NCBI GenBank assembly: GCA_963832165.1
Contig: CAWHTE010000001.1
Coordinates: 416,001 to 480,000 of the forward strand
Source: an uncultured delta proteobacterium
Lineage (GTDB): Bacteria; Myxococcota_A; UBA9160; SMWR01
Length of the DNA stretch: 64,000 nucleotides
Reading direction: 5' to 3'
Part shown: in pieces, positions 55,640 to 64,000 of the stretch
Layout of the letters: each line of letters begins with the position of its first letter
Position numbering within the stretch: position 1 is the stretch's first letter
Program-made: the position numbers and the translations under genes
The notes under the pieces: model-generated
Told to the model about the DNA's origin: nothing
The model's input: only the letters and a program-made list of their open reading frames with translations
Databases searched by the model: none

Positions 55640-56177
55640 GGGCACCCCTCCGATACGACCCACCCACGCCAGGCGGACGGTGGCCGCGCGGGCTTCACAC
55701 CCTTTTTACCACCGAACCGCGGGACGACCAAACGACCGGCAACTCCACCCAGTAGGTCCCGGACGGAGCGCGCTTTCATCGGCACGTCTCGAGCGTGCGA
55801 CTCGCGCTCCAAACCGCGGGGAAGCCTCGCTTTTTGGTTGATCGGCGGGCGGCGCGGCGCGTATCGTGGGCGCGGTGCTCGTTCCAACGGCCCGGGTCCG
55901 GTGTTCGTGCCGTGGTCGATCGCGCCCTCGGGTGGCGATTCCACGGGTCGGCAGACGGACACCGCTGGGTGTCGTGGCAAGCAAGGTGGAGCCGCGGCAA
56001 CCGTTGGAGCGCCGGCGCCCGGGAGTGGATGACCTCTCCCGGGCGCCATCTCTCTTCGCTCGCCTTCGGCTCGCTGCGCGTCGGCCGACGAAGTCGGCCT
56101 CCTTGCGGGTTTCCTTTCGCGGGTTGAACTCGATGCCGCATCGGCGACCGTCCCCGGATCCAAGCGGGAGACGAGTG

Positions 56178-57194
56178 ATGGCGTCTGCAGTCCTGAACAC
56201 CCTCGACGGGCTCGATCGCGAGCTAGAGACCGTGTTGACGTCGTTCGACACGAGTTATGCGTGGAACTACGGCAGCGTGAAAGAGGGCCTGCGCGATCTC
56301 TACGAGAAGTCGAAGCGCGAGCAGTGGAACGGCACCACGCAGCTCGCATGGGATACGTACGTCGATCCCGAGGCCGAGATCGTCCCGTCGGCAATCAATC
56401 CGCTGCGCGACTATCCGCCGTTCCAGAAGCTCAACGCGAAGGAGCTCGCGCATGCGCGCCACGCGCAGCTCTCGCTCCAGCTCTCGCAGTTCCTGCACGG
56501 CGAGCAGGGCGCGATGATCGTGGCCTCGCAGCTCGTCGGCGGCGTGCCCTGGATCGAGGCGAAGTGGTACGCGAGCTCGCAGACGATGGACGAGGCGCGC
56601 CACGTCGAGGTGTTCAGCCGCTACGTGCGCGAGAAGCTGGAATGGGAGTGGCCGATCACCAAGTCGCTCAAGGAGCTGCTCGACGCCACGATCAGCGACT
56701 CGCGCTGGGACTTCAAATATCTCGGCATGCAGATCCTCATCGAAGGTCTCGCGATGGCCGCGTTCGGGAATCTGTTCCAGATCGCGCAGGAGCCGCTGCT
56801 CAAGGAGCTGCTCAAGTACGTGATGCGCGACGAGTCGCGCCACGTCGCGTTCGGCGTGGTCTCGCTGCGCGACTACTACGACGACATGCCCGCGAACGAG
56901 CTCGCCGATCGCGAGGATTTCATCATCTACGCGTCCGAGCTCATGCGCGACCGCCTGGTCGGCAGCGACTTCGCGCGCGCGATGGGCTGGAACGTCGAGG
57001 AGGTCCAGCAGGTGGTGCTCACCTCCGAGGTGGGCCGGATCTTCCGCAGCATGCTGTTCCAGCGGATCGTCCCGAACCTGAAGAGGCTGAACCTGCTCAC
57101 GCCGAAGGTGCGCGCGGCCTACACGAGGCTCGGCCTGATCCAGTTCGAGGACTTCGATTCGGCTGAGGCCGATCGCCGGCTCGGGTTCCTCTGA
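56178..57194 (+). CDS. Ferritin-like di-iron protein (AurF-like family)
   Basis: QFLHGEQGA, MDEARH, LIEGLA and RDESRH. Confidence 0.82.
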   Translation: MASAVLNTLDGLDRELETVLTSFDTSYAWNYGSVKEGLRDLYEKSKREQWNGTTQLAWDTYVDPEAEIVPSAINPLRDYPPFQKLNAKELAHARHAQLSLQLSQFLHGEQGAMIVASQLVGGVPWIEAKWYASSQTMDEARHVEVFSRYVREKLEWEWPITKSLKELLDATISDSRWDFKYLGMQILIEGLAMAAFGNLFQIAQEPLLKELLKYVMRDESRHVAFGVVSLRDYYDDMPANELADREDFIIYASELMRDRLVGSDFARAMGWNVEEVQQVVLTSEVGRIFRSMLFQRIVPNLKRLNLLTPKVRAAYTRLGLIQFEDFDSAEADRRLGFL

Positions 57195-57358: not shown

Positions 57359-59062
57359 GTGGAGCGGACGGTGGCGAAAGGGCAGAGGTCGAGCCGGCGC
57401 CGGCCATTCGCTGTGCTCTCGGCCTGCGCTCTACTCGCGGCGGCCAGCTGCTCCGACAGCGACGACGACGACGACGTTCCGAACCCGCCCGCAGAGGCGC
57501 CGCCCGGCGCGCGGGAGAGCCGCGCGATCGCGGGCGTATCGATGGGAGGTTACGGGGCGCTGAACATCGGGACCAAACGGACGGATCTGTTCGCGGCGAT
57601 CGGGTCGCTCGGTGGGCCTGTCGATCAGGGCGCGGTGCTCGAAGACATCGAGTTCCAGAATCTCGAGGTGAAGGAGGTGACCGGGATTCCAAGCGGTGTG
57701 GACGGGGATTACACGTTCGACCTGCTGCCGCCCTATCCCGAGCGCGGCACGCGTCTCGAGTTCTTCCACGATCTCTTCCTCGCCTTCGGCAATCCCACGC
57801 TCCATCACCGCGATCCCGCCCGGGCCTACCTCGCGACCGATTCGGAGCCGGCCCTGCTGCGCGTCGACGACCAGTGGGGTCCGTTCACGAGTGCGGCCGA
57901 TTTCTCCGACGGAGGCGACGTCAACGAGGACGGCTTGCGCCAGACGAACGAGCCCCCCGGCGAGGCCGTCCAGGTGCTTCTCGTGGTGCCCGGCTCGCTC
58001 CAGTCCAAGTTCGGAGTCGCGGGGACCGTGCTCGGGGGACGCGCGCTCGCCGACACCAACGCCGACGGAGTCTACGACCTCGGCGATGGAATCGTCGTGA
58101 ACATGCACGAGCCGTTCAGCGACACCAACGGCAACCGGGTGTTCGAACCGCTGCTCGGAGAGACCTATCAAGACTTCGGCCTCGACGGAGTGGCGGGCAG
58201 CAGCGACCGCGGCGAGGGCAACAGCACCTTCGACCGCGATCCCGACATCGACCGCTGGCTCGCCGAGGACCCGCGCACGCGTCTCGAGAGCCGCAGCGCC
58301 AGCGAGATCCAACGCCAGCGCATCTACATGGACGTGGGCGACGAGGACGAGCTCGGCTTCGCGCGCCAATACGCGAACCTCGTGAGCGTGCTCATGGCGA
58401 AGGGGCTCACCGTAGCGGTGCACGACGGTTTCCGCGGCAATTGCGTCCAGATCCCCGACGTCGACACCCCGTACACGCTCGTCATCTACGACGGCGGACA
58501 CATCGGCTTCGACGGCGCGGACTCGATCGACGACGACCTGCGCAATGGCGATATCTGCGGCCCCGCCGCGATCTGGCAGCGCCTGATCCACCTGCTGGTC
58601 GCGATCGACGCCGCGTTTCCGAATCCCGACCGCGGCCTCGGCGGCGCGCGGCCGGTCGGCGACACGCTGACGGTCGACATCGCCTCGCCGGCGCTGGCCG
58701 TGAGCGGAGGCACGGCGCCGATGCGCCGCGTGGTGGTCTATCGCCCGCCCGCGTTCTTCAACACGGACCGCAAATTCCCGATCCTGTACTTCCTGGGCGG
58801 GCATGGACAATCACCCGACGACTTTGAACGAGTGGGCCTCCTGCTCGACCTGCTGATCGCCGCGGACGTGCTTCAGAACATGTACGTCGCGTTCCTGCCC
58901 GGCGAAGGCGGCACCGAGGGATCGTTCTACGTGAACCACGCCGTGTCGGAGGCGCAGGTTCCCGGCCTCGCCGGAGTCACGTCCGGACGCTACGAGGACT
59001 CGATCCTCCAGGACCTGCTGCCAGCGATCGAGATCACGGTGCTCGAACGGCGCGTTCGCTAG
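57359..59062 (+). CDS. Lipoprotein with circularly permuted esterase (alpha/beta hydrolase) fold and acidic Ca-binding-like insert
   Basis: AAASC lipobox; GVSMGG near the N-terminus; MDVGDED; GGH; the normally N-terminal VVYRPP...FPILYFLGGHG...SFYVN...YEDSILQDLLPAIE segment lies at the C-terminus. Confidence 0.75.
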   Translation: MERTVAKGQRSSRRRPFAVLSACALLAAASCSDSDDDDDVPNPPAEAPPGARESRAIAGVSMGGYGALNIGTKRTDLFAAIGSLGGPVDQGAVLEDIEFQNLEVKEVTGIPSGVDGDYTFDLLPPYPERGTRLEFFHDLFLAFGNPTLHHRDPARAYLATDSEPALLRVDDQWGPFTSAADFSDGGDVNEDGLRQTNEPPGEAVQVLLVVPGSLQSKFGVAGTVLGGRALADTNADGVYDLGDGIVVNMHEPFSDTNGNRVFEPLLGETYQDFGLDGVAGSSDRGEGNSTFDRDPDIDRWLAEDPRTRLESRSASEIQRQRIYMDVGDEDELGFARQYANLVSVLMAKGLTVAVHDGFRGNCVQIPDVDTPYTLVIYDGGHIGFDGADSIDDDLRNGDICGPAAIWQRLIHLLVAIDAAFPNPDRGLGGARPVGDTLTVDIASPALAVSGGTAPMRRVVVYRPPAFFNTDRKFPILYFLGGHGQSPDDFERVGLLLDLLIAADVLQNMYVAFLPGEGGTEGSFYVNHAVSEAQVPGLAGVTSGRYEDSILQDLLPAIEITVLERRVR

Positions 59063-60235: not shown

Positions 60236-61429
60236 TCACTTCGACTTCGGCAGGCCGAGCACGCGCTCGCCGAGGATGTTGCGCTGGATCTCGTTCGTGC
60301 CGGCCGCGATCGTGTGGCCGTAGGAATCGAGATACTCGATCGGCCAGCGCGCCTCGTCGGGCGCCGCTGGGTCGAGCTTGTACAGCGTCGAGTGGGCGCC
60401 CGCGATGTCCATGCCGAGGCGCGCGTTGTCCTGCGAGTACTCGGATCCGGTCACCTTCATCTGGAGCGGCAGCCGCATCGGGTGATCGCAGAGCGCCGGC
60501 ACGCGCGACCGGCGCATGTTCTGCATCATGCCCTCGTGCACGATCGCGCGCTGCACGAGCGCGTCGCGCGTGAACGGGTCGTCGCTCGCTCGTACGCCGT
60601 TGCGGTAGCTCGCGCGTGCGAGCGCGATCAGACGCTCGATGGCGCTCGCGCGATCGCCTCCGCCTCCGCCGGCGCCCTCGGCGGCGCCGCGCTCGTAGGT
60701 GAGAGTGGTCATCGCGACGGTCCAACCCTTGCCGACGGCGTCGAGGCGCAGCGAGTCGGGGATCTCGACGTTCTCGAAGAGCACCTCGTTGAAGCCGCTG
60801 TCGCCCGTCATCTTGATCAACGGCTTCACGGTCACGCCGGGATGCCCCTCGATCGGGCACAGGAAGTAGGTGAGCCCGTCGTACTTGTGATCCTTGCTCG
60901 TGCGCGTGATCAGGATCATCCACTGCGCGATGTGGCCGAGGCTCGTCCACACCTTGTGCCCGTTCACGATCCAGGCGTCGCCCTTGCGCACGGCGCTCGT
61001 CTGCTGATTGGCGAGGTCGGAGCCCGCGCCGGGCTCGGAGAAGCCCTGACACCAGATCTCGTCGCACGCGAGCGCGGGTTTGATGAACCGGCGCTTCTGT
61101 TCCTCGGTGCCGTGCACGAGGATCGTCGGGATCGCCATCGAGAGCGCCACGACATTCAACATGTAGGGCGTGCCGGCCTGGCTCATCTCGCGGTTCGCAA
61201 TGCGCTGGAAGCCCTGGTGGCCGCCGCCTCCGTACTCTTTCGCGATGTCGGCGCCCACGAGCCCGGCTTCGTAGCAGCGGTGCTGCCATTCCTGCAGGTA
61301 GTCGCGCAGCGGTCCGCCGCTGACCTCGATCGGCAGCACGGGCAGGCGCTCGGGCGGCGGCGGCGGCCTGTTCTCGGCGAGCCAGCGGCGTGCGTACTCC
61401 TGGAATTCCCTCTGCTCGGCGTCGCTCAT
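60236..61429 (-). CDS. Acyl-CoA dehydrogenase (catalytic subunit type)
   Basis: WCQGFSEPGAGSDLA, FNEVLF, TLTYER and TIAAGTNEIQRNILGERVLGLP. Confidence 0.9.
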   Translation of the reverse strand: MSDAEQREFQEYARRWLAENRPPPPPERLPVLPIEVSGGPLRDYLQEWQHRCYEAGLVGADIAKEYGGGGHQGFQRIANREMSQAGTPYMLNVVALSMAIPTILVHGTEEQKRRFIKPALACDEIWCQGFSEPGAGSDLANQQTSAVRKGDAWIVNGHKVWTSLGHIAQWMILITRTSKDHKYDGLTYFLCPIEGHPGVTVKPLIKMTGDSGFNEVLFENVEIPDSLRLDAVGKGWTVAMTTLTYERGAAEGAGGGGGDRASAIERLIALARASYRNGVRASDDPFTRDALVQRAIVHEGMMQNMRRSRVPALCDHPMRLPLQMKVTGSEYSQDNARLGMDIAGAHSTLYKLDPAAPDEARWPIEYLDSYGHTIAAGTNEIQRNILGERVLGLPKSK

Positions 61430-62583
61430 CGCGTGCCCCGCATGTGGCGGAAGCACGAGCGGATCTCGTTCACGAACGTCTCGGGCTGCTCGAATGCCGC
61501 GAAGTGGCCACCCTTCTCGAGCTCGCTCCAGTGGACCAGGTCCGTGAAGCGCTTCTCCGCCCAGCGCCGCGAACACCGGAAGATCTCCTTCGGGAAGATG
61601 CTGCATCCGGTCGGCACGGTGACGTTGGGAAGCCCGCCCTGTGACTGGGGGCGGAAGCTCTCCCAGTACAGCCGCGCCGACGATGCGCCGGTCCCGGGAA
61701 GCCAGTAGAGCATGATGTTGTCGAGCAGCTCGTCACGCGTGAGCACGTTCTCAGGGTGGCCGCTGCAGTCGGTCCACTTCCAGAACTTCTCGAGGATCCA
61801 CGCGGCCTGGCCCGCGGGCGAGTCGACGAGGCCATAGCCGAGCGTTTGCGGGCGCGTGCTCTGCTGCTTCGAATAACCCGAATCCCACTCTCCGTATTCG
61901 GCCATGCCTGCGAGCGCCGACTGCTCCGCGGGTGTCAGGTTGCTCATCGTCGCGGGGTCGGGCGCGACGATCGGCATGTTCAGGTGGATGCCCGCGCAAT
62001 GCGCCGTGTCGCGGATCCCGATCGTCGTGGTGACCATCGCGCCCCAGTCGCCGCCCTGCGCGAAATAGCGCGGGTAGCCGAGGCGGATCATGAGAGCGCT
62101 CCAGAGATCCGCGATCCGCTCGACGCCGGTTCCCTTCACGGTCGGCTTGTCCGAGAAGCCGTACCCGGGCAGCGACGGACACACGACATGGAACGCGTCG
62201 GCCGCATCACCGCCGTGCGCGGTCGGATCGGCGAGCGGCGCGATCACCTTCTGGAACTCCACCACCGAGCCCGGCCACCCGTGCGTCATCACGAGCGGCA
62301 GCGCGTTCGGATGCTTCGAGCGCACGTGGTAGAAGTGGATGCCGAGCCCGTCGACATTCGTGCGGAACTGCGGGAGCGCGTTGAGCCTGCGCTCGCGCTC
62401 GCGCCAGTCGTATTTCTCGGCCCAGTACGCACACACGTCCTGGACGTAGGCGAGCGGCGTTCCCTGCGACCAGTCGTCGACACACTCGGCTTCGGGCCAG
62501 CGCGTGGCGCGCAGTCGACGGCGCAGATCTTCGAGTGCGTCGTCGCTCACCTGGATGCGGAAGGGTTCGACCGCGTCGCTCAT
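61426..62583 (-). CDS. Epoxide hydrolase (microsomal type with EHN domain)
   Basis: THGWPGS, PSLPGYGFS, QGGDWG and GGHFAAFEQP. Confidence 0.92.
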   Translation of the reverse strand: MSDAVEPFRIQVSDDALEDLRRRLRATRWPEAECVDDWSQGTPLAYVQDVCAYWAEKYDWRERERRLNALPQFRTNVDGLGIHFYHVRSKHPNALPLVMTHGWPGSVVEFQKVIAPLADPTAHGGDAADAFHVVCPSLPGYGFSDKPTVKGTGVERIADLWSALMIRLGYPRYFAQGGDWGAMVTTTIGIRDTAHCAGIHLNMPIVAPDPATMSNLTPAEQSALAGMAEYGEWDSGYSKQQSTRPQTLGYGLVDSPAGQAAWILEKFWKWTDCSGHPENVLTRDELLDNIMLYWLPGTGASSARLYWESFRPQSQGGLPNVTVPTGCSIFPKEIFRCSRRWAEKRFTDLVHWSELEKGGHFAAFEQPETFVNEIRSCFRHMRGTR

Positions 62584-62826: not shown

Positions 62827-63552
62827 TCAACGCGTCTCGCGTGCGGCGCGCTGGGCTGCGGGCTTCGCGCGCTTCGAGCGCGCGAAGTTCGTCGCCGCTT
62901 TGCGATAGCGCGCATCCGCCTCGGGATTTCCCTCGCCCTGGATGTCCAGACCCTCGTCCGCTTCCGGCGCGAGCGTGAGGTTGGTCGCGACGAAGTCCCA
63001 GTTGAGCAGGTGGTCGAGGAAGTTCTCGACGTAGCGCTTCCGTTCGTTGCGGTAGTCCAGATAGTAGGCGTGCTCCCACACGTCGAGCGTCAAGAGCGGC
63101 ACGAGGTCGCGCTGCAGCGGATTCTCGGCATCGTCGCTGCTGCACACGTGCATGCGCCCGCTCACGCCTTTCACGAGCCATGCCCAGCCCGAGCCGAATT
63201 CTTTGATCGCCGCCGCGGCGAACTGCTCACGGAATCCGGTGAACGATCCGAACGATTCGTCGATCCTGTTCGCGAGCTCGCCGGTCGGCTCACCTCCGCC
63301 TCCGGGCTGGAGGCTCATCCAGTAGAAGTTGTGGTTCCAGACCTGGGCGGCATTGTTGAACACCTCGCCGCTCGTGGTGCAGATCAGCTGTTCGAGGCTG
63401 CGTTCCCCTTCGGGCTTGCCGCGCACGAGCTTGTTGAGCTTGTCGAGGTAGCCCTTGTGGTGCTTCTCGTAGTGCAATTCGACGGTTTCGGCGCCGATAT
63501 GCGGTGCCAGCGCGTTCTTGCGATACGGAAGCGGAGGAATTTCGTACTTCAT
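62827..63552 (-). CDS. sodB: Fe-type superoxide dismutase with C-terminal extension of about 45 aa
   Basis: HYEKHH, FNNAAQVWNH (Fe-type AAQ), FGSGW and DVWEHAYY. Confidence 0.92.
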   Translation of the reverse strand: MKYEIPPLPYRKNALAPHIGAETVELHYEKHHKGYLDKLNKLVRGKPEGERSLEQLICTTSGEVFNNAAQVWNHNFYWMSLQPGGGGEPTGELANRIDESFGSFTGFREQFAAAAIKEFGSGWAWLVKGVSGRMHVCSSDDAENPLQRDLVPLLTLDVWEHAYYLDYRNERKRYVENFLDHLLNWDFVATNLTLAPEADEGLDIQGEGNPEADARYRKAATNFARSKRAKPAAQRAARETR

Positions 63553-64000
63553 GATGCTCTCCCGATCTTCTCGACTTGCGCAGCGGCGAGTCGTTGGTCG
63601 CCATCTTCGGTGGAGAGCAGCGGAACGGCGGCCTCGGGTCCGATCAGTTCGGCGCTGAAGCTCTCCTCGAGATAGAGGCGTACTTGTTTGTCGTCGTGAC
63701 TCAGATATCCGATCGCCGCGTCGCGGCCGCACACCAGCTTGAAGTCGCCGCCGCGCAAGCTCACGGCGATCCCGCCCGCGAGCGACGGCGCCCAGACCAC
63801 CGGTCGATCGATCAGTTGCTGGAGGTGCTTCATCACCGGATAGCCGCCGTCGCCCGTCGTGCGCGCCAACCCCGCGAAGGCGGTGGGGCCGAGTGCGACG
63901 GCGTACGGCCCACCGACACCGGCCTGGCGCAGCTGCTCGAGCGCCTCGCTCACGGCATCGGGCAGCGCGACCGGATCGGCCGGCAGCGCGACGCCCGGAT
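63549..64000 (-). CDS. Family 1 encapsulin shell protein (Linocin M18-like), 5' end outside the window
   Basis: GVGGPYAVALG, GYP, VVWAP, SLRGGDF and GRDAAIGYLSHD...LYLEESF...PEAAV. Confidence 0.88.
   Translation of the reverse strand, partial: PGVALPADPVALPDAVSEALEQLRQAGVGGPYAVALGPTAFAGLARTTGDGGYPVMKHLQQLIDRPVVWAPSLAGGIAVSLRGGDFKLVCGRDAAIGYLSHDDKQVRLYLEESFSAELIGPEAAVPLLSTEDGDQRLAAAQVEKIGRAS

Follow-up and report, generated by a model that had tools for sequence, protein, structure and literature searches.

The closest described relatives of the locus analysed here are the family 1 encapsulin systems with Flp/EncFtn cargo, known from Rhodospirillum rubrum (Rru_A0973, PDB 5DA5), Haliangium ochraceum (PDB 7OE2/7ODW) and Thermotoga maritima (PDB 3DKT). 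EncFtn mineralises iron inside the shell (PMC7762939, PMC8346489). Cargo loading in family 1 relies on a GSLxIGSLK-like targeting consensus, whose minimal core in T. maritima is LXI (PMC7925596, PMC10960027, PMC11202242); DGSLGIGSLKG is an EncFtn/Flp example (PMC7925596). In Klebsiella pneumoniae the peptide pocket includes Arg34, Asp38, Asp229 and Ile230 (PMC10960027). Non-cargo accessory genes were described by Andreas and Giessen in 2021, and their main text contains neither "superoxide" nor "dismutase" (PMC8346489). The ferredoxins of IMEF operons carry an N-terminal TVGSL motif that is conserved and peptide-like, and were co-purified (PMC8346489). A native superoxide dismutase (SOD) cargo of encapsulins was not found in the titles and abstract openings of the literature on encapsulin and superoxide dismutase.

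The window, a stretch of 64,000 nucleotides from genome G000 (C1:416001-480000; C1 coordinate = window coordinate + 416000), ends inside a minus-strand gene cluster with the order EncFtn (just past the window), family 1 encapsulin (287 aa) and Fe-type SOD (241 aa). ATGA overlaps occur at both the EncFtn/encapsulin and the encapsulin/SOD junctions. As in the Flp/EncFtn systems, the cargo gene lies directly upstream of the shell gene, belongs to the EncFtn family and ends in a canonical C-terminal peptide. Unlike those systems, the locus has a third gene (Fe-SOD), a sigma-54-type site and a shell extension of 20 residues, and it occurs twice in the genome. Compared with the IMEF-operon ferredoxins, the SOD is likewise an extra operon gene that was proposed to enter the shell, but its motif is not conserved. 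The features are as follows.

62827..63552, minus strand: SOD gene with fused C-terminal module, 241 aa; PF00081 and PF02777; best PDB match E. coli FeSOD (E 5.5e-74); H27, H74, D157, H161
62977..63552, minus strand: SOD catalytic core, residues 1-192; pLDDT mostly >90; pooled dN/dS 0.27 (11 genes, synonymous sites partly saturated)
62941..62976, minus strand: SOD linker, residues 193-204, with the L-D-I of the proposed cargo motif; pLDDT <50 at residues 200-208; dN/dS 0.58 (same 11 genes and saturation)
62935-62952, minus strand: GLDIQG, the proposed cargo motif, read from the sequence
62830..62940, minus strand: fused GEGN module, SOD residues 205-241, with predicted helices at 210-225 and 229-240; invariant columns in 10 tails, 86 short homologs, 1697 clusters; dN/dS 0.28 (same 11 genes and saturation)
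63557..63563, minus strand: SOD ribosome-binding site GGGAGAG, within the last encapsulin codons, read from the sequence; GGAGA is shared by the second copy and G005
63549..63552, minus strand: ATGA stop/start overlap from encapsulin to SOD, read from the sequence
63552..63611, minus strand: encapsulin C-terminal extension, residues 268-287, from comparison with relatives
63549..64000, minus strand: encapsulin gene, 3' half in the window (whole gene G000:C1:479549-480412); NF041155, PF04454
C1:480409-480789, minus strand: EncFtn gene, outside the window, same operon; 126 aa from a conserved GTG; TIGR04535, PF22277
C1:480803-480817, outside the window, upstream of EncFtn: sigma-54-type -24/-12 site CGGCACGGTGATTGC, from pattern enrichment
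C1:480864-480871, outside the window: palindrome TTGTACAA, candidate activator site, found with only 5 of 71 sigma-54-type sites in G000

A preliminary description of the window had proposed the SOD as a new encapsulin cargo or partner, and had guessed that a ferritin or DyP gene might lie upstream; inspection of the flanking sequence placed the EncFtn gene directly upstream of the encapsulin. The partner half of the proposal is supported: given this gene and the recurrent adjacency described below, a functional encapsulin-SOD partnership against oxidative stress is plausible. The cargo half, which relied on GLDIQG as a loading peptide, was not supported. The overlap of encapsulin stop and SOD start, correctly read as ATGA, is of an ordinary type in this genome: 527 of 3272 co-directional gene pairs in G000 share 4-nt overlaps, as counted with a crude codon-score gene caller. 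It is missing from the second copy and from G005, where the ribosome site lies in a short spacer. The second three-gene copy of G000 is located at C11:350952-352893 and encodes proteins 74-86% identical to those of the first. In this copy (locus L010, C11:350952-352896) the -24 element has GT in place of GG and the shell extension is interrupted by a TAA, in contrast to its closest relative L012; the copy may be differently regulated or decaying.

The shell gene product is assigned by sequence to family 1 encapsulins (NF041155, 282 bits against a cut-off of 100; PF04454, E 1.4e-82) and is predicted to assemble. The shell sequence is closest to T=1-type entries. Of the peptide-pocket residues, R34, D38 and D231 are kept, and the position of Ile230 is occupied by Ala232. 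The NF041155 match ends at residue 265 of 287, in agreement with the roughly 20 extra C-terminal residues noted earlier. These residues are unlikely to affect loading because the C-terminus of the HK97 fold sits on the shell exterior (PMC11664910). A similar extension is found in L012 and in the encapsulin remnant of L015; it is missing in most relatives and is variable. A recent read-through unique to this copy was considered as its origin and dropped, since the extension also occurs in L012 and the L015 remnant, and the second copy's TAA appears to be derived.

EncFtn matches TIGR04535 (143 bits, cut-off 125) and PF22277 and aligns with solved EncFtns. Its GTG start is kept in 7 loci and gives a protein of 126 aa, whose C-terminal GSLRIGGLR aligns with the targeting peptides of the solved proteins. 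A peptide matrix was built from 20 EncFtn peptides only and scanned over 4817 C-terminal 49-mers of G000. The training peptides scored 18.5-28.4 (self-scores), and the two EncFtns of G000 ranked first and second, the operon protein being rank 2 and itself in the training set. On this sequence evidence EncFtn is the predicted cargo of the cage. The next-best peptide-like scores in the genome, 14.0 near the C-terminus of C3:79280-80323 and 16.0 near the N-terminus of C8:133526-134248, fall below those of true peptides; the two products are possibly distant cargos or chance matches.

The motif L-x-I/L-G-S/G/A-L occurs in 20 of 22 distinct EncFtn C-termini. Both exceptions, in G166 and G157, come from genomes without an encapsulin match and lie directly before a SOD gene, which makes them an internal control and suggests that loss of the shell lets the peptide decay. 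A shell-free use of EncFtn is possible in these genomes. Peptide-less EncFtn was seen directly before a tail-less SOD on G166:C35, C45 and C2 and on G157:C15 (L136, L140), with three matches to EncFtn in G166 and none to encapsulin.

The SOD contains Sod_Fe_N (residues 2-81) and Sod_Fe_C (residues 89-190). It shares the His-His-Asp-His metal ligands of E. coli FeSOD (SodB, PDB 1ISA; NCBIfam PRK10543), with which it aligns over residues 3-193. The alignment ends at 193 and leaves a tail of about 48-49 aa; the preliminary description had quoted the tail sequence correctly and put its length slightly low, at about 45 aa. Residues A69, Q70, W72 and A142 form the Ala/Gln/Trp/Ala pattern that we take to be the Fe-type signature, and the sequence is consistent with iron as the metal. 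PRK10543 was the best of three SOD models, although its score of 267 is below the equivalog cut-off of 348. The SOD thus differs from E. coli FeSOD in its sub-cut-off score, its location in a stress island and its 49-residue tail.

A cage with a ferritin cargo is textbook, and the new item of this locus is the GEGN module that makes up most of the tail. With 60 distinct GEGN-bearing SOD tails collected, a sequencing artefact is excluded. Ten tails share the invariant columns GEG, AD, YR and FA-x-S. A profile of these tails retrieved 86 proteins of 39-81 aa, comprising 81 standalone proteins with the same motif and 5 SOD fragments or look-alikes, and the invariant columns of the tail are common to the standalone proteins. 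With a profile of 52 standalone members, 1697 clusters at 50% identity were found at E <=0.001 and 415 at E <=1e-10. Most members are standalone: among the matches listed, 142 of 143 newly listed representatives have <=140 aa.

Pfam gave nothing meaningful for 10 tails or for 14 standalone members (none of the latter below E 0.03), and NCBIfam gave no match below E 0.1 for the same 14. The module found no sequence match in the PDB, and Foldseek with a standalone model returned nothing at E 0.001. A plasmid search with a standalone member and a literature search with four motif strings found nothing related. In the atlas search the tail alone reached only 0.75-0.76, and a standalone member matched unnamed clusters at 0.93-0.95. 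At 50% identity the family of small proteins comprises about 1700 clusters; it lacks Pfam, NCBIfam and PDB matches and is repeatedly fused to iron- and oxygen-stress enzymes.

AlphaFold predicted two helices; pLDDT is 83-92 for the free protein (residues 21-50) and 58-69 for the tail in its fused form. Hydrophilins are defined by a hydropathy below -1 and a glycine content above 6%. Both values are reached by 65 of the 81 standalone GEGN proteins, and the tail has a mean hydropathy of -1.2. Bacterial hydrophilins (KGG/YciG/GsiB, CsbD) are likewise small, very hydrophilic and glycine-containing, and reside in general-stress islands. GEGN differs from them in its sequence, with no match to the KGG, CsbD or LEA families of Pfam in 10 tails or 14 standalone proteins, and in being predicted helical rather than fully disordered.

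Pooled dN/dS over 11 genes, with synonymous sites partly saturated, was 0.28 for residues 205-241, equal to the 0.27 of the catalytic core, and 0.58 for the linker. With the linker relaxed in this way, the module appears to be kept by selection. For the modules of G207 and G210, neither genome having an encapsulin match, pN was 0.23 and pS 0.69.

The operon is headed by a sigma-54-type site. Sigma-54 promoters have the consensus GG-N10-GC; CGGCACGGTGATTGC ends 14 nt before the conserved GTG of EncFtn, and the element is enriched and positionally conserved, its assignment to sigma-54 being putative. The pattern YGGCAY-N5-TTGC was matched 4 times in the upstream island (20 kb), where 0.10 matches would be expected, and was found before 15 of 25 distinct EncFtn loci compared with 38 of 4806 genes genome-wide in G000. 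It also precedes many unlinked island-type SODs, including those of G006, G032, G040, G138, G158, G121, G176 and G177. Of 13 GEGN loci, 5 carry the site and 9 do so at a relaxed pattern (3.5% background in G000); two more loci did not fit the expression used. No sigma-70 site or intrinsic terminator was found in 2.6 kb, and an Rfam search gave no hit.

The island neighbours encode CsbD, BON, DUF1328, YtxH, holin-like, phospholipase D and sigma-54 activator proteins, a set typical of general stress. The sigma-54-type site heads the operon and also many unlinked SOD and GEGN genes, so the adjacency of encapsulin and SOD can be explained by co-regulation. A single regulon appears to include the shell, cargo, SOD and GEGN genes, which have been reshuffled, fused and lost around one type of promoter. 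Across G000, 71 YGGCAY-N5-TTGC sites were counted, many before small stress-type or secreted proteins and some before genes that presumably encode PII, ammonium-transporter and pilin proteins. These sites outline a candidate sigma-54 general-stress regulon of the lineage. In related loci the motif TT(C/G)TACAA, a candidate activator site, often precedes the -24 element by 50-70 nt.

Taken together, the locus is likely, with some reservation, a sigma-54-driven general-stress operon in which EncFtn is the predicted cage cargo and the SOD stays outside the cage, its tail being a fused small-protein module that acts as a hydrophilin-like helical appendage. Under stress, an enhancer-binding activator encoded in the island would switch on the operon. 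EncFtn would be loaded via GSLRIGGLR and would oxidise and store Fe(II) within the shell, while the Fe-SOD in the cytoplasm would convert superoxide to H2O2 and O2. Removal of free iron would keep the H2O2 made by SOD out of Fenton chemistry, and the partnership of SOD and cage would operate through co-expression, not co-encapsulation. The operon's apparent membership of a sigma-54 general-stress regulon would explain the joint switch-on of iron storage and superoxide removal in this probable Myxococcota lineage, a placement that follows the source label of a close SOD homolog. The tail would have arisen by fusion of the SOD gene with a small GEGN gene belonging to the regulon, and would then have been kept by selection, most likely as an amphipathic helical appendage that protects the SOD or lets it self-associate. 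The hydrophilin-like role is suggested by composition; the invariant Tyr/Ala/Phe face is more reminiscent of a surface for binding.

The arrangement from which such a fusion would start is present in G047, where an encapsulin operon, a free GEGN gene, a catalase gene and a tail-less SOD gene lie unfused within 17 kb. The SOD-GEGN protein P0205, labelled alphaproteobacterial, falls on a long branch outside the Myxococcota SOD clade and retains an internal Met ahead of the module, which fits an independent fusion by read-through. In several fusions an internal Met directly precedes the module, as read-through between neighbouring genes would predict. GEGN function could be assayed cleanly with the SOD fusion, whose activity, stability and localisation are measurable with and without the tail.

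The link of the tail to encapsulin was surveyed in 225 genomes of the class: encapsulin was found in 19 (22 loci), SOD matches in 91 and GEGN in at least 11, with 26 candidates per genome scored for GEGN. Two loci from genomes already counted were counted once. The adjacency survey proposed earlier showed that a SOD gene directly follows the shell gene at 4 of the 22 encapsulin loci (twice in G000, once each in G005 and G209) and lies within 1.5 kb at two more. The main result against the preferred explanation is that the module is present in all 4 of these SODs compared with 3 of the 27 other SOD loci read, the four coming from two genera and being confounded by kinship. Similarly, GEGN and encapsulin occur together in 7 of the 11 GEGN genomes of the class, with encapsulin in 19 of 225 overall, a comparison in which kin are not independent. 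In the other direction, tailed SODs were found in G207, G210 and G132, which have no encapsulin match even at E 1 and are 100, 91 and 98% complete, but fragmented (850, 300 and 90 contigs). With 8 genomes from a 401-genome sample of the phylum added to those of the class, 9 of 19 GEGN-positive genomes have no encapsulin match.

This distribution bears on an alternative in which GEGN is a portable docking tag for SOD, Dps/bacterioferritin-like, DUF2383, hemerythrin and flavin-binding stress proteins, the partner being a standalone GEGN protein, another stress protein or the shell at a place outside the peptide pocket. Besides the presence of the module on every SOD directly behind encapsulin, the conserved Ala/Tyr/Phe/Ala face on the predicted helix pair speaks for it, as does the range of fusion partners. 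Pfam domains were assigned in 29 of 70 homologs of >=143 aa (SOD 9, DUF2383 5, PNPOx-like 4, DUF2934 4, ferritin/Dps 2 and five singletons), some of these fusions being probably chimeric calls; a hemerythrin-GEGN fusion is encoded on G511:C8 (L161), and the P0205 SOD acquired its module independently, it appears. Against this, the fusion partners are the usual residents of stress islands, the internal Met points to read-through, most members are standalone and nearly half of the GEGN genomes lack an encapsulin match, and we consider a docking function of this kind rather unlikely. The narrower version, in which GEGN is the docking tag of the sigma-54 stress regulon and takes the Fe-SOD (elsewhere Dps, bacterioferritin-like, DUF2383 or hemerythrin proteins) to a common site, possibly the shell, is distinctly unlikely. 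If docking were nevertheless true, the locus would encode a SOD-decorated or SOD-loaded iron-storage compartment, and family 1 encapsulins would have a second targeting code, of a non-canonical kind; a module that binds the shell would be a new code of use in nanoreactor design. Two further fusions were noted: on G082:C122 (L088, L095) GEGN is joined, in two copies, to a Cys/His-rich peptide without a Pfam match that we take to resemble metallothionein, and on G071:C104 (L090) it is joined to an unassigned helical domain.

The tail might also be a tolerated passenger of a chance fusion, of no benefit to the SOD. Tailed and tail-less SODs are interleaved in the tree, and the tail has repeatedly been lost, truncated or allowed to decay, as in G006, G004, G121, L015, L016, L018 and L021. 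The SOD of G006, sister to that of G005, is unlinked from encapsulin and tail-less; G004 has lost the shell gene and its SOD tail is frameshifted; in L015 the encapsulin gene is deleted and the SOD tail shortened. L014, on the other hand, kept the full tail after an internal deletion that spared only the first EncFtn codons. A passenger is very unlikely in view of the dN/dS of the module, which equals that of the catalytic core, and of the same positions being conserved in fused and free copies. EncFtn and encapsulin have been lost through three different internal deletions, in L014:4398-4460, L015:3497-3663 and G004:C12 (L120), each of which spares the sigma-54-type site before SOD. The deletion in L015 joins the EncFtn start in frame to the last residues of the shell protein.

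The preferred placement of the SOD outside the cage was weighed against loading through GLDIQG. The operon position and gene overlap are those of a possible secondary cargo, and L-D-I satisfies the minimal LXI consensus given in PMC11202242. In relatives' EncFtn peptides Glu is tolerated at the x position, and some true peptides are followed by about 30 further residues; in the SOD, L-D-I lies in a stretch predicted to be disordered, and about 35 residues that include two predicted helices come after it. As the minimal core is present in predicted disorder, a weak binding may occur. The SOD tail, however, scored -4.4 on the EncFtn-peptide matrix (rank 1498 of 4817), which is chance level, and the top score among the 60 distinct GEGN-bearing SOD tails was -3.5. 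The full consensus L-x-I/V-G-S/T-L is not found in the SOD, which reads L-D-I-Q-G-E and has no G-S/G/A-L after the Ile.

L-x-I/V occurs in 35 of the 60 distinct tails, and in the tree of 46 SOD cores L-D-I appears in a single shallow clade only (99/97 support); the alignment and tree were made without the five rows G121, G138, G211, G166 and G052. The L-x-I core is absent from the encapsulin-adjacent SODs of G005 (DDVHGEGN), G209 (ERVRGEGD) and L018 (PPARGEGN). Among the matches listed, none of 142 further motif-bearing family representatives has L-x-I/V before GEG. In standalone proteins D-V/I-Q is the usual run-in to GEGN, and the linker that holds the motif is under the weakest selection, the conserved part of the tail being a separate module that also occurs in genomes without an encapsulin match. 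The SOD is probably not a cargo, and its loading as a secondary cargo via L-D-I in the normal peptide pocket, with a relay from superoxide to peroxide to iron oxide within the shell, is most improbable.

Three other genes of the window were noted. About 240 nt downstream of SOD lies a gene of the epoxide hydrolase family (PF06441; window 61426-62583, minus strand), and the genes that follow SOD in the second copy and in G005 differ from it. On the plus strand, an ORF at about 56130-57194 with two E-x-x-H motifs resembles, by eye, a ferritin-fold di-iron protein. The plus-strand ORF at 57359-59062 encodes a lipoprotein-like protein of 567 aa with, judged by eye, two apparent esterase-type segments and Asp-rich repeats.
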